Assembly (NCBI GenBank): GCA_964447735.1
Contig: CAYUTJ010000005.1
Coordinates: forward strand, 1-29,751
Source: an uncultured Candidatus Saccharibacteria bacterium
Lineage (GTDB): Bacteria; Patescibacteriota; Minisyncoccia; Minisyncoccales; GBS-2
Reading direction: 5' to 3'
DNA length: 29,751 nt
The notes under the pieces were generated by a model. It did no database searches, had not been told where the DNA came from, and was given only the letters and a program-made list of their open reading frames with translations. The position numbers were made by a program, and so were the translations under genes. Every line of letters starts with the position of its first letter. The first letter of the stretch is position 1. This document shows positions 11,969 to 17,900 of this stretch, one piece after another.

Positions 11969-12910
11969 ATGAAAATCAATCTCAAAAAAAATGTTCCTTT
12001 GAGAAATTATACTACATTCAAAATTGGAGGGAAAGCTCGTTATTTTTTCGTTGCAAAGAAAAAAGAAAATGTAAAAAATGCAATTGAATTTGCAAAAAAG
12101 AAAAGAATTCCCTTTTTTATTTTAGGAGGAGGTAGCAATGTTTTATTCCCTGATGAAGGCTTTAGAGGAATTGTTATAAAATTAGAAATTTTAAATTTTA
12201 AATTAGAAAACAACAAAGTTTTTGTGGGGGCTGGTTATCCATTAACAAAATTAGCTCAAAAATTAGCAAAAAAGAGCTTTTCTGGACTTGAATTTGCAGT
12301 TGGAATCCCAGGAACTATAGGAGGAGCTATTAGAGGAAATGCTGGAGCTTTTGGAAAGGAAATAAAAAATGTAGTAGATGAGGTTGAAGTATTAAAAATT
12401 GAAAATTGCAAATTGAAAATTGAAAAATTAAAAAATAAAGATTGTCAATTTGGCTACAGAGAAAGTATTTTCAAAAAAAAGAAAAATTGGATAATTTTGA
12501 AAGCTACCTTGAAAATAAAAAAAGGAAATAAAAAAAGAATTCAAGAAAAAATAAAAAAAATTTTGTCAAAAAGAATAAAAACTCAACCTCTTGAGTTTCC
12601 CTCTGCAGGATCTGTCTTTAAGAATATTCCTTTGGAAAAAGTTCCCAAGAATGTAAAGGAAAAATTTAAAGATAAAATAAAAAGAGAACCTTTCCCCTGT
12701 TTACCAGCAGCAGTTTTGATAGAAGCTTTGGGGTTGAAAGGATATCAAATTGGAGGAGCTAAAATTTCAGAAAAGCATGCCAATTTTATTATTAACGCAA
12801 AAAAAGCTAAAGCAAAAGATATCTTGCAATTAATAAGGCTGATAAAAAAGAAGGTAAGAAAAAGATTTGGAGTAAATTTAGAATTAGAAATTGAGTTAGT
12901 TAAAGTTTAA
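11969..12910 (+). CDS. murB: UDP-N-acetylenolpyruvoylglucosamine reductase
   Basis: TTFKIGG, LGGGSNVL, GIPGTIGGAIRGNAGAFG, FGYRESIF, SAGSVFKN, SEKHANFIIN and LELEI. Confidence 0.97.
   Translation: MKINLKKNVPLRNYTTFKIGGKARYFFVAKKKENVKNAIEFAKKKRIPFFILGGGSNVLFPDEGFRGIVIKLEILNFKLENNKVFVGAGYPLTKLAQKLAKKSFSGLEFAVGIPGTIGGAIRGNAGAFGKEIKNVVDEVEVLKIENCKLKIEKLKNKDCQFGYRESIFKKKKNWIILKATLKIKKGNKKRIQEKIKKILSKRIKTQPLEFPSAGSVFKNIPLEKVPKNVKEKFKDKIKREPFPCLPAAVLIEALGLKGYQIGGAKISEKHANFIINAKKAKAKDILQLIRLIKKKVRKRFGVNLELEIELVKV
12179..12206 (+). repeat. in-frame 7-bp tandem array in murB
   Basis: aaattag aaatttt aaatttt aaattag, translated as KLEILNFKLE. Confidence 0.6.
12395..12422 (+). repeat. in-frame 7-bp tandem array in murB
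   Basis: aaaattg aaaattg caaattg aaaattg, translated as KIENCKLKIE. Confidence 0.8.
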
Positions 12911-13688
12911 TTTTTCTAAAAATTATCAAAAACCCAGTATGAGCTACCATCCTATCTTTGGGACGCAATGCCCTTCCTCTTTTTTGCCATTCCCTCTGTA
13001 AAGTTTCAAAAATTCCTTCGAGTTCAAAACTTTTTTTAAATTTTTTCTCAACAATATCTACTAAATTAAATACCTGCAAAACAGTCGGTAACCAACAAGC
13101 TAAAATTCCACCTTCTTTTAAAATCTCTTTTACTTTTTGAAGATAATTCCAAGGTTCTACCATATCCAAAATCACTCTATCAAAATTTTTTTCTTTTATA
13201 TCTTCCAAATTCATCTTTTTTAGAACTAAACTTTTAATTTCTTCAGGCTTTTTTCGATAAAATTTTTCAATGTTTTCTTTTGTAGTTTTGACCATATCTT
13301 CTCTCTCATCGATTGCGAAAACTTTTCCTTTTTCTCCGACTGCTCTAACCAAATAACAAGTTAAAGCTCCAGAACCACATCCTGCTTCCAAAACTTTAAT
13401 TCCAGGAGCAATATCTGCTAAAACTAAAATTTGACCTACATCCTTTGGATAAATAATTTGAGAAATTCTCTTTAGTTTTTTTAAAATAAAATCTGCTAAA
13501 GTAGGTTTCAAAATTAAAAGTTCAGCTCCTTTAGAAGAAATTATCTTTCTCCCTATTCCTTTTTTTAAAATTTCCTCATGCAAAATCTTCCCTCTATGAA
13601 ATTCAAAAACTCCTCCTTTTTTTAACGAAATTAAATATTTTCTTTGCTTTTTATCTTTTAATAAAACCAAATCTCCTTCTTTTAACAT
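12900..13688 (-). CDS. trmI: tRNA (adenine-58-N1)-methyltransferase
   Basis: QIIYPKD, VLEAGCGSGALT, ILDMVEPW, PTVLQV and RPKDRMVAHTGFL. Confidence 0.93.
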   Translation of the reverse strand: MLKEGDLVLLKDKKQRKYLISLKKGGVFEFHRGKILHEEILKKGIGRKIISSKGAELLILKPTLADFILKKLKRISQIIYPKDVGQILVLADIAPGIKVLEAGCGSGALTCYLVRAVGEKGKVFAIDEREDMVKTTKENIEKFYRKKPEEIKSLVLKKMNLEDIKEKNFDRVILDMVEPWNYLQKVKEILKEGGILACWLPTVLQVFNLVDIVEKKFKKSFELEGIFETLQREWQKRGRALRPKDRMVAHTGFLIIFRKIKL

Positions 13689-15883: not shown

Positions 15884-16809
15884 TTTTTTGAAATTTCAAA
15901 TTTAACGTCTTTTTTATTTCTGGCTTTAGTCGAATAATACTTTGTGAGTTTTTTAGCTTCTTTTAAAAATTTTTTTTCAATTTTTCCCCCATAACTTCTC
16001 AAAAGGGTAGTAGGACCTGGATAATTTTTAATTTCTACTAATATGTCTCCTTTTTTTGCTAATTTTTTAATTTTTAAGTTTTCTTTTTCGTTTCTCCCAA
16101 CTATTATTTTAACTTTTCCTTTCCAAAAATGCCTTCCGACTTTGAGCAATTCTACGTCATTTTTTTTAAAATTTGGGCATTTTTCCATTAATTTTTTCAA
16201 TCTCTTGGTAAAGAAAGGATCTGTTAAAAGACAACCACCAGAAGGTGTAGGATAAAATTTAATTTTGAATTTTTTTGCCAATTCAATTTGTTTTTTTCTC
16301 CTTCTTCCAGAAATAGAAAAAAGATTTTCTCTTTTTACCCAACCTTTAATTTCTACAAGCGTGGGTTTTAATAATTTAGCTGAAAGTGGCCTTAGCAAAT
16401 ATCCTTCCAAAGAAGATTCTTTCTCTACTATTTTTAGAGCCCTTTTATTTTGAGAAAAAGGTCTCTCTCCCAAAACTTCACCTGTAGCGACAAAATCGAA
16501 TTTTTCTTTTTCCATTAATTTTTTTGCTTTCTTTAACATTAAAATGCGACAATCTAAGCAAGGATTCATTTGAGAACCAAAACCATATTTTGGTTTTTTT
16601 AAAATTTTAAAAAGATCTCTTGAAATATCCATTATTTTTAAAGGAATTTTTAATTCCTTAGCAGCTTTTTTTGCATTTTTTGCAGAGAAAAAGCAACTTT
16701 TAAAATTCAAAGCTAAAATTTCAATTTTCTCTCTCTCTAAAATTTTTGCTGCCAAAATAGAATCTAATCCTCCAGAAAATAACAAAATGGCTCTTTTTCT
16801 CTTTCTCAT
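15880..16809 (-). CDS. ThiI/MnmA-related PP-loop sulfurtransferase with no THUMP domain and a DUF814/NFACT-R-like C-terminus; target unknown
   Basis: SGGLDS, NPCLDC, ATGEVLGERPFSQ, LLRPLSAK, PSGGCLLTD and GRHF. Confidence 0.8.
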   Translation of the reverse strand: MRKRKRAILLFSGGLDSILAAKILEREKIEILALNFKSCFFSAKNAKKAAKELKIPLKIMDISRDLFKILKKPKYGFGSQMNPCLDCRILMLKKAKKLMEKEKFDFVATGEVLGERPFSQNKRALKIVEKESSLEGYLLRPLSAKLLKPTLVEIKGWVKRENLFSISGRRRKKQIELAKKFKIKFYPTPSGGCLLTDPFFTKRLKKLMEKCPNFKKNDVELLKVGRHFWKGKVKIIVGRNEKENLKIKKLAKKGDILVEIKNYPGPTTLLRSYGGKIEKKFLKEAKKLTKYYSTKARNKKDVKFEISKK

Positions 16810-17900
16810 TTGAAAATAATTCCTCCTCCTAAAACCCTTTCTCCCTTATAAAATACGACAGATTGGCCAGGGGTAATTGCTCTTTGGGCTACTTTAAACT
16901 TTAAACTATAAACTTTGGGCTTTGAAGTTCTATTAATAATAGCTAAAGCTGGTTTGTGGCGGTAACGAATTTTAGCCTTGACTTTTAAGGGTAAGGTAGG
17001 TTCAATGCCCGAAATCCAATTTACATTTTTACAAATCAGTTCTTTTTTATATAAATCCTTCTCATTTTTAGTAACAATTAAGAGATTCTTTTTCAAATCT
17101 TTATCTAAAACCCAATAAGGACCCCCCGAAAGTTTTATTCCCTTTCTTTGCCCGATCGTGTAAAACCAAAGTCCCTTGTGCTCTCCTAAAATTTTTCCTT
17201 TTTTGTCAACAATCTTTCCTGGCTTTTCTTTGAGATACTTTTTTAAAAAATCATTAATTGTCGTCTCAACAAAGCAAATTTCAACTGATTTTCTTGCTCT
17301 CAAAACAGGTAATTTAAATTTTTTTGCCAGATTTTCAACTTCTTTCCTTGTATAATTTCCTATCGGAAATAAAATTCTTTTTAGTTGATTTTGATTTAAC
17401 ATCCACAAAAAATATGATTGATCTTTATTTTTATCTTTTGCCCTTAATAATTTTTGAATTTTGGATTTTGGATCTTGAACTTTTCTTGCATAATGACCCG
17501 TAGCCAAAAAATTCGCATCTAACTTTAAAATTTTTTCTAATAAAATTCCAAATTTGATTTCTTTATTGCAAACAACGCAGGGGTTTGGAGTAATCCCTTT
17601 TTTATATCCTTCTAGAAAATAATCAACGATTCTTTTCTTGAATTCTTTTGAAAAATTAAAAACGTAAAAGGGAATTTTCAAAATCTTAGCTACTTTTCTC
17701 GCTCTAATTTCAGCCTCTGGAGAACAACATCTGTTTGAGGCTCCGACAAGTCCATTTTTCTCTGGTTCTGACCAAAATTTCATAAAAACTGAAATTACAT
17801 TAAAACCCGCTCTCTTTAAAAGAGCAGCAGCTACTGAAGAATCTATCCCTCCTGACATTGCTATCACTACTTTTTCATTTTTTCTACTATTCTTGTCCAT
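16806..17900 (-). CDS. mnmA: tRNA-specific 2-thiouridylase MnmA, C-type (CxxC, Fe-S)
   Basis: MSGGIDSS, NRCC, TPNPCVVCN, ATGHYAR, KDQSYFL, EICF, YTIGQRKG and RAITPGQ. Confidence 0.96.
   Translation of the reverse strand: MDKNSRKNEKVVIAMSGGIDSSVAAALLKRAGFNVISVFMKFWSEPEKNGLVGASNRCCSPEAEIRARKVAKILKIPFYVFNFSKEFKKRIVDYFLEGYKKGITPNPCVVCNKEIKFGILLEKILKLDANFLATGHYARKVQDPKSKIQKLLRAKDKNKDQSYFLWMLNQNQLKRILFPIGNYTRKEVENLAKKFKLPVLRARKSVEICFVETTINDFLKKYLKEKPGKIVDKKGKILGEHKGLWFYTIGQRKGIKLSGGPYWVLDKDLKKNLLIVTKNEKDLYKKELICKNVNWISGIEPTLPLKVKAKIRYRHKPALAIINRTSKPKVYSLKFKVAQRAITPGQSVVFYKGERVLGGGIIFK
16895..16929 (-). repeat. in-frame 7-bp tandem array in mnmA
   Basis: Minus strand aacttca aagccca aagttta tagttta aagttta, translated as TSKPKVYSLKFK. 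Confidence 0.6.
17455..17482 (-). repeat. in-frame 7-bp tandem array in mnmA
   Basis: Minus strand aagttca agatcca aaatcca aaattca (then aaaatta), translated as KVQDPKSKIQK. Confidence 0.7.

Follow-up and report, generated by a model that had tools for sequence, protein, structure and literature searches.

In-frame heptanucleotide tandem arrays in murB and mnmA of a Patescibacteria genome are probable products of a DNA-level repeat process filtered by protein selection

Two housekeeping genes in a 29,751-nt stretch of contig CAYUTJ010000005.1 (hereafter the window, meaning the whole stretch that was analyzed) each host two arrays of tandem 7-nt units that are translated as part of the protein: murB, encoding UDP-N-acetylenolpyruvoylglucosamine reductase, and mnmA, encoding tRNA 2-thiouridine synthase. 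The genome holding the window (G000; 612 kb, 38 contigs, ~31% GC) has its relatives in the Patescibacteria, Parcubacteria group (Minisyncoccales, Nealsonbacteria, and Gribaldobacteria). We consider it probable, at roughly 60%, that all four are members of a lineage-wide array class, ~25-38 nt or 3.5-5.5 units in length, that is made and homogenized at the DNA level and then filtered by protein selection, so that the arrays are by-products that remodel proteins and not switches.

Genes were called by a simple open reading frame (ORF) rule, and arrays were detected with Tandem Repeats Finder (TRF) and by inspection of the sequence. The murB gene (11969..12910, + strand) is an intact ORF of 313 aa with Pfam domains FAD_binding_4 (PF01565) and MurB_C (PF02873), and mnmA (16806..17900, − strand) is an intact ORF of 364 aa with Pfam tRNA_Me_trans (PF03054) and the M and C domains. 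MurB site 1 (12179..12206, +) reads AAATTAG AAATTTT AAATTTT AAATTAG, with a perfect core at 12186-12204, and encodes KLEILNFKLE. MurB site 2 (12391..12443, +) reads AAAATTG AAAATTG CAAATTG AAAATTG AAAAATT and onward and encodes LKIENCKLKIEKLKN; TRF reports it at 12391-12426 as ATTGAAA x5.1 (89% matches, score 58), and a longer reading, to 12443, has 7.4 units at 80% matches. MnmA site B (16891..16929, −) has the coding strand AAAGCCC AAAGTTT ATAGTTT AAAGTTT AAAGTAG, encoding SKPKVYSLKFKV (TRF: 16891-16916, ACTTTAA x3.7, score 45), and MnmA site A (17452..17482, −) has the coding strand GATCCAA AATCCAA AATTCAA AAATT, encoding VQDPKSKIQK (TRF: 17452-17477, TTTTGGA x3.7, score 38). By TRF, the four arrays comprise 3.7-5.1 (up to 7.4) head-to-tail 7-nt copies with 80-100% matches. 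All four are inside ORFs and translated, and most other arrays are likewise genic. Within murB the arrays are in direct orientation and differ in unit, within mnmA the units bear no relation to each other, and neither gene has an inverted pair. An initial annotation of the window, made from the sequence alone, had placed four arrays at these positions, and both the sequence and TRF find them there, far above chance. Two of its descriptions need correction: it had the arrays occurring in both orientations relative to the reading frame, but the coding strands of all four share an A-rich polarity, and in place of the common TTGAAAW-like core that it proposed, the actual units are AAATTWK, AAAATTG, AAAGTTT, and AATCCAA.

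Array counts were compared with order-5 Markov sequences, codon shuffling within genes, and synonymous-codon shuffling, using a TRF score of at least 38 as cut-off. The window (29.7 kb) contains four arrays at this cut-off, compared with ~0.1 in the Markov-5 and codon-shuffled controls and ~0.3 under synonymous shuffling. The whole of G000 contains 19 period-7 arrays, against 2.3 ± 1.1 in Markov-5 sequences, 11.8 ± 2.4 after synonymous-codon shuffling, and 7.8 after codon shuffling, ~6 of the last being intergenic arrays untouched by the shuffle; period 8 showed no excess in this genome. The contrast is sharper for genic period-7 arrays in G002, which is of the same family as G000 (658 kb), and in G035, a complete genome from another family of which 460 kb was read: 19 arrays were observed in G002 against 1.0 (codon shuffle), 3.9 (synonymous shuffle), and 1.8 (Markov-5), and 26 in G035 against 0.6, 3.0, and 0.2, respectively. 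With the same controls, no excess at periods 4, 5, 6, or 8 was detected in G002 or G035. Across G000, G002, and G035, genic period-7 enrichment is ~5-100 fold and, among periods not divisible by 3, period 7 alone is enriched. Chance is excluded as the source of the arrays, and the genome-wide scan against codon-preserving shuffles that the initial annotation had envisaged finds period-7 arrays in large excess in all three genomes. Copy numbers have a discrete mode of 4-5.5 (29-38 nt), with shorter arrays, of 2-3 copies, at the level expected by chance, and the density of arrays per kb is 3-6 fold higher in intergenic than in genic DNA.

Orthologues were collected from 40 relatives and 80 metagenome or genome loci per gene, which gave 108 distinct coding sequences for MurB and 103 for MnmA, and a strong array was defined as a sequence window with at least 18 of 21 lag matches. 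The relatives are mutually related, so tests across them are not independent. Among such sequence windows in MurB orthologues, 28 had period 7, one had period 8, one had period 12, and none had any other period; in MnmA orthologues, 35 had period 7, six had period 8, and one had period 6. The strong arrays cluster exactly at the four sites found in the window, with array-bearing orthologues numbering 16 of 108 at MurB site 1, ~10 at MurB site 2, 20 of 103 at MnmA site A, and 9 at MnmA site B. Their units differ between lineages. At MurB site 1 they include CGCAATA x4, GTTCGAG x4, AAATTCT x5, AAATGTC x3, CAGGTTA x4, AAAATTC x4, and, in a gene of 47% GC, a perfect AAGATTC x5; at MnmA site A they include AACTTAC, AGAAAAY, AAATCMC, and AAAAAAC. 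The MurB site 1 peptides are mutually unrelated (LRNTQYEIRNT, VRCSRFEVRGE, KIQDSRFKIQDS, and RLQVTGYRLKG), and when set in one register the units at this site are variants of approximately AATTCAA, with the same substitution in every unit of an array. Such uniformity within arrays combined with difference between lineages is, as judged from the aligned sequences, concerted evolution, and the concerted change does not come from protein selection because the units are read in three different frames. The argument of the initial annotation that protein-level repetition does not explain the arrays is upheld by the period of 7 and by the contrast of same-site peptides, which are not related from one lineage to another, with DNA units, which are uniform within each array. 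It had also allowed that orthologues might turn out to lack the periodicity; they have arrays at these sites too, built from other units. Its proposal of a DNA-level repeat process, with products tolerated in housekeeping proteins, is supported both by these orthologue arrays of other units and by the excess over shuffled sequence.

Whether the arrays are insertions, as the initial annotation had asked, depends on the site. At MurB site 1, most orthologues have a segment of 19 aa whether they bear an array or not, and given this constant length the array overwrites the segment without insertion; at MnmA site A, the loop has 0-24 extra aa among orthologues. Orthologues of less than ~46% identity, including gut Firmicutes-like sequences, are without arrays, with three exceptions. 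When sites were mapped among G000, G002, and G035, some had arrays in two or three of the genomes with differing units, and others were lineage-specific replacements or insertions of 3-22 residues; insert lengths in multiples of 21 nt were not observed.

A minor variant, with period 8, is found at the mnmA hairpin sites of 6 of 103 orthologues (locus L050 and others, at site B). G035 has period-8 arrays at 93904, 181339, and 182462, and the arms of the intervening-sequence protein (IVP) cassettes described below are also of period 8 in some cases (CATTTAAA in G035). At mnmA site A of G020 (L034), an in-frame insert of 22 residues consists of one AACTTAC, a GC-rich stretch with the hairpin GCGAG CGAA CTCGC, and (CAACTTA)x4; this may be what is left of a larger inserted element.

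AlphaFold2 models built on the orthologue alignments had a mean predicted local distance difference test score (pLDDT) of 95.7 for MurB and 92.5 for MnmA. In these models, MurB site 1 corresponds to the end of strand 65-72, turn 73-76, and strand 77-80; MurB site 2 to strands 136-145 and 148-155; MnmA site A to strands 138-142 and 149-153; and MnmA site B to strands 318-324 and 330-340. Each window array is therefore predicted to encode a confidently folded β-hairpin and not a floppy loop, so that of the initial annotation's suggestion that arrays are tolerated in surface loops, the tolerance stands and the loops do not. A 7-nt unit gives a peptide with a period of seven residues, typically hydrophobic-polar-hydrophobic followed by four polar residues, a pattern that suits the modeled hairpins, and the length mode of ~10-12 residues equals one such predicted hairpin.

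The arrays also bear marks of a filter. In 11 of 11 perfect genic arrays from the three genomes, the units are without stop triplets in all three frames, and the junction codon of the AAATTG family in G000 and two close relatives is TGC, TGT, or TGG, never TGA; the units at MurB site 2 of the close relatives are GAAATTG or GAAATTA. Q, N, S, K, and F are over-represented in array-encoded peptides, and G, A, E, and R are under-represented. Enrichment of Trp and Cys was considered as a general mark of DNA-driven peptides and was not found overall, being true only of the AAATTG family. No change in array length was detected between MurB alleles of ~98-100% identity, the three full-length alleles (98-99%) differing only outside the arrays, and no frameshifted orthologues were seen at the four sites in the MurB and MnmA orthologue sets.

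The same units recur at unrelated loci within a genome. G002 has the families AAATTCC (x7), AAAAGTC (x5), AAATACG (x3), and AAATTGC (x3). Perfect AAATTCC arrays of 4.1-4.4 copies occur in five unrelated genes, encoding a 2-oxoacid:ferredoxin oxidoreductase, a FemAB-like protein, a pilin-like N-terminus, a secreted protein, and a membrane protein; (AAAAGTC)4AAAA occurs in UvrC, MiaB, and a small ORF, with a degenerate form in enolase; and AAATACG occurs in MurB, a PolX/PHP protein, and UvrA. The UvrC and MiaB genes share 34 identical nt, in the same frame, between flanks that have no similarity. Identical-unit pairs within genomes numbered 59, compared with 25.3 ± 4.0 under permutation of genome labels, the sharing being weaker in G000 and G035 than in G002. 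In an independent set of 13 genomes, the unit was shared in 2 of 14 same-genome pairs against 0.22 expected, and in one of these two pairs, from G029, MurB and MnmA both read KILNSKFYI. Of the 10 non-genic period-7 arrays in G000, five are within 4-31 nt of a tRNA gene for Pro, Ala, Asn, Met, or Lys (arrays at C2 41762, C6 3769, C17 13038, C1 39254, and C12 3594), and the array beside tRNA-Lys has the unit AAATTGN, as in murB site 2.

A gene family that co-occurs with the arrays, the existence of which the initial annotation had raised as a question, was found in the four-helix-bundle cassette encoding IVP (PF05635/TIGR02436). A PF05635 gene was present in five of the five genomes first tested. 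The G000 protein matches TIGR02436 ("four helix bundle protein") at 76.5 bits, with weak similarity to Avd and a relative in the Protein Data Bank from Xanthomonas campestris. Its gene, with a GTG start at 12663, is in the single IVP cassette of G000, located outside the window on contig C17 (12622-13085) between a sigma-70 gene and tRNA-Asn. The arms of this cassette are inverted heptamers, beginning ACTTTAA ACATTAA ACTATAA on the left and ending TTTAGAG TTTACAG TTTAAAG on the right, and in G000, G002, and G035 the IVP gene is bracketed by inverted heptamer or octamer arrays. TRF detected a period-7 or period-8 array within 150 nt of 17 of 26 IVP genes in relatives, and the commonest arm length, 4.0-4.6 copies, is the same as that of the genic arrays. 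In G006 (L285, G006:C17:1-3037), the cassette, with arms CAACCTC CAGCTTC CAACTGC and GTTGGAA GTTGGTG GTTAGAG, is inside the 5′ region of a 16S rRNA gene, which is the classical intervening-sequence layout.

Abundance of arrays follows presence of the cassette. The murB and mnmA loci of 15 IVP-positive genomes had 19 strong arrays in 88.8 kb, compared with five in 113 kb from 19 IVP-negative genomes (Mann-Whitney p = 0.0009, uncorrected for phylogeny); incompleteness of metagenome-assembled genomes (MAGs) can hide cassettes. Counts for whole genomes at a TRF score of at least 38 were 19, 25, and 30 in IVP-positive G000, G002, and G035, and among IVP-negative genomes were 0 in 334 kb (G016), 5 in 397 kb (G011), and 5, all degenerate, in 274 kb (G030). 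The arm unit was the same as a genic unit in 3 of 35 same-genome pairs, compared with 2 of 254 cross-genome pairs (permutation p = 0.003). The cassette arm of G020, (AACTTAC)x4, has the unit of the G020 MnmA site A array, and the array at 16891 in the window matches the left arm of the G000 cassette (C17 12622-12665) in unit and in 33 of 39 nt, the 12-mer AAACTATAAACT occurring in these two places and nowhere else in G000. In all, the unit is shared with the arms of the same genome by the 16891 array and by the G020 and G029 MnmA arrays, and it is not shared by the other three window arrays or by G023. No four-helix-bundle ORF was found at the window arrays. In G011, which has no IVP gene, inverted, hairpin-forming heptamer arrays (58380-58630 of contig C1; AGAAAAT x4.6 facing TTCTATTTTCTAAATTCT) fill the infA-rpmJ and rpmJ-rpsM spacers and look like empty cassettes. 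We propose only tentatively that the IVP cassette is the agent or reservoir of a repeat-propagating system, its arms being copied or converted into look-alike sites genome-wide, including those encoding hairpins of essential enzymes.

Under the broader reading of DNA-level production followed by protein selection, out-of-register copying between 7-nt units, by slippage or template switching, would homogenize an array, and short-patch, non-reciprocal transfer might occur between arrays at different loci, the likeliest partners being the heptamer arms of the IVP hairpin cassette, acting as a reservoir. RecA was present in five of five genomes tested, array-rich and array-poor, and MutS and MutL were absent wherever they were searched for (see below). 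A rewrite that caused a frameshift, introduced a stop codon, or disrupted the hairpin would be lethal in murB or mnmA, and hence only length-neutral or in-frame rewrites of tolerant strand-turn-strand segments would be seen. Several observations weigh against this account. No transfer event has been observed directly, and MurB alleles of 98-100% identity show unchanged arrays, so that the process must be slow or episodic. Inserts do not come in multiples of 7 aa, and simple three-unit slippage steps do not explain them. The G000 arrays are degenerate and AT-rich, each alone being only modestly above the synonymous-shuffle control. As to the cassette, its association with arrays is uncorrected for phylogeny and comes from 34 genomes at the locus level and six at the genome level; three IVP-negative MAGs that are 90-94% complete have strong arrays; IVP-negative G011 and G030 retain a small array excess; the IVP arms of G002 and G035 differ from the main genic unit families; and G023 has the MnmA site B array of G000 but other, 8-mer arms.

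The arrays could be local microsatellites, each made and homogenized only on site by slipped-strand mispairing with a polymerase that favors 7-nt steps, unit sharing and the IVP correlation then being due to coincidence or ancestry. An excess of heptanucleotide repeats in many bacteria and the polymerase-footprint idea (PMC4692102) make this attractive, as do the lineage-specific units kept at orthologous sites and the mismatch between the IVP arms and main genic families of G002 and G035. The absence of mismatch-repair genes is also consistent with it. Domain searches for repair and reverse-transcriptase genes covered G000, G002, G035, G016, G011, G029, and G012 overall; no MutS domain was found in the five genomes searched for it (G016 not among them) and no MutL domain in the five searched for that, array-rich and array-poor (G016 and G011) alike. 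Since MutL is equally absent in array-poor G016 and G011, loss of mismatch repair alone is insufficient as a cause. A templated origin by reverse transcriptase, similar to telomerase or diversity-generating retroelements, was also rejected, there being no RVT_1 domain in five genomes. We nevertheless regard purely local slippage, a serious rival, as unlikely. G016, of the same order and with no MutL match (it was not tested for MutS), has zero arrays; unrelated genes within a genome share perfect arrays that agree in unit, phase, and length; sharing of units within genomes is above the permutation control; copy number peaks at 4-5.5 and does not decay steadily; and in-frame change would require three-unit steps, which are absent from the insert lengths and from the constant segment lengths.

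Alternatively, the arrays could be a functional nucleic-acid signal, that is, DNA or RNA binding sites for a lineage-specific factor such as IVP or a nucleoid protein, with units co-evolving and the coding effect tolerated. This would account for genome-specific unit families in both genes and intergenic DNA, for the 3-6 fold higher density in intergenic DNA, for the proximity of half of the intergenic G000 arrays to tRNA genes (4-31 nt), and for the association of array abundance with the IVP gene. It is improbable in that several unrelated unit families coexist in a genome, a rule of spacing or position was not seen, and the G000 arrays decay to degenerate forms while the host genes are kept.

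It is highly improbable that the arrays are an artefact of codon usage and protein sequence, in which a genome of 30% GC with a Lys-rich proteome spells amphipathic hairpins (alternation of K with I, L, or F and an N, S, or K turn) with a 7-nt period by chance. The four window arrays are indeed AT-rich and degenerate, about half of the G000 arrays survive synonymous shuffling, and the hairpin pattern of hydrophobic-polar-hydrophobic plus four polar residues fits a 7-residue period; however, perfect GC-containing units encoding unrelated peptides occur at the same orthologue sites (AAGATTC x5, GTTCGAG x4, CAGGTTA x4, and CGCAATA x4), counts in G002 and G035 are far above the synonymous shuffle, and G016 and the AT-rich relative G030 have few or no arrays. 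Phase-variable genes classically contain, inside the ORF, repeats whose unit length is not divisible by 3 (PMC4692102), but it is scarcely credible that murB and mnmA are contingency loci, turned on and off by slippage or given adaptive variation in their hairpins. Both genes are essential and present in single copy; their arrays are short, at 4-5 units, frequently imperfect, and identical in four alleles of 98-100% identity; and the sites are without frameshifted orthologues. Unchanged arrays in near-identical alleles, together with the essential nature of the genes, argue against the arrays being phase switches.

The reading we prefer, of DNA-level production filtered by protein selection, has partial precedents. 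According to the summary in PMC4692102 of Mrazek, Guo and Shah 2007, long heptanucleotide simple sequence repeats (SSRs) are in excess in many bacteria, and the idea that polymerase slips preferentially in 7-nt steps is there attributed to Mrazek et al. 2007. The cyanobacterial short tandemly repeated repetitive (STRR) sequences, like the GGGAATC and GGGGAYT heptamers of Xanthomonas and Nostoc (Rehm et al. 2015), are described as intergenic, of unknown function, and often in inverted pairs (PMC4692102). The initial annotation had named STRR sequences as an analogue, and the comparison is apt: shared features are tandem 7-nt units, an excess specific to period 7, few unit families per genome, paired inverted arrays, and the same contexts in related species with change in length and sequence. 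Those repeats are described as intergenic, often long, and G-rich, whereas the arrays described here are ~30 nt, AT-rich, translated in frame in essential enzymes, and recurrent at orthologous β-hairpin sites with concerted unit turnover. Intervening sequences (IVSs) of rRNA genes with an S23p ORF (S23p/23S_rRNA_IVP; Coxiella burnetii) are selfish elements cut out by RNase III (PMC4990558). Like them, G000 carries a PF05635/TIGR02436 gene within inverted arms, and the cassette arms are heptamer arrays of the length class found in genes, in some genomes with the same unit; unlike IVSs, which are excised by RNase III, the window arrays are solitary, without an ORF, inside protein genes, and translated.

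Rickettsia palindromic elements (RPEs), reportedly described by Ogata et al. in 2000, are said to be ~100-150 bp long and inserted in frame in housekeeping genes. The likeness is in selfish or neutral repeat DNA being tolerated in frame in exposed parts of essential proteins; RPEs are palindromic insertions, whereas the window arrays are ~30-nt tandem heptamers that often overwrite without change in length. The contingency loci of Haemophilus and Neisseria (tetra- to heptanucleotide) similarly have, within an ORF, a tandem unit of a length not divisible by 3, and the arrays described here differ from them in showing no length variation in near-identical alleles, in being in essential genes, and in being short and imperfect. 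Ohno is said to have pointed out in the 1980s that an oligomeric repeat that is not a multiple of 3 gives the same periodic peptide in all three frames, and to have proposed this for primordial genes. A 7-nt unit giving a 7-residue period is in keeping with that idea, and the difference is that here segments of modern enzymes appear to be overwritten in an ongoing process. We found no paper on in-frame heptamer arrays in genes of the candidate phyla radiation (CPR) or on a link between heptamers and the IVP family.

Structured parts of essential enzymes, MurB and MnmA here and UvrA, UvrC, MiaB, and enolase in relatives, would on this reading be repeatedly overwritable by a DNA repeat process, providing a natural experiment in which sequences a β-hairpin tolerates and a source of fast, mutation-driven, non-adaptive protein divergence in Patescibacteria. 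Array segments may also mislead alignments, phylogenies, and selection tests in CPR genomes. Should the link to IVP be true, it would join two old puzzles, both testable: the bacterial heptanucleotide excess and the function of the rRNA intervening-sequence protein. If IVP is moreover the agent, a selfish element associated with rRNA and tRNA genes would be continuously rewriting ~10-residue segments of core proteins, and the heptanucleotide repeat excess of many bacteria, long unexplained, would be accounted for.

Three other repeats or repeat candidates were noted in the window. The initial annotation had listed a weaker candidate at 6495-6522 (−), which is not an array: TRF gives it 2.9 copies (score 33), its lag-7 identity is 0.51, and its peptide, the conserved motif QG[VI]EIS[ND]LKTQKKG of a cation-efflux (CDF) transporter (Pfam Cation_efflux and ZT_dimer), is kept in a relative without the periodicity. 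A degenerate repeat of period 7 (or 6) at 5527-5558, TCTTTCT x4.9 with 77% matches, is within a gene for an ABC-transporter ATPase, encodes LKEEREKEIKKI, and may be low-complexity Lys/Glu coding rather than a true array. A 31-nt unit, the period of which is also not a multiple of 3, occurs twice at 22175-22238 (TRF: 85% matches, score 91) within the gene for an archaeal-type S-adenosylmethionine synthetase (21383-22582; PF01941).

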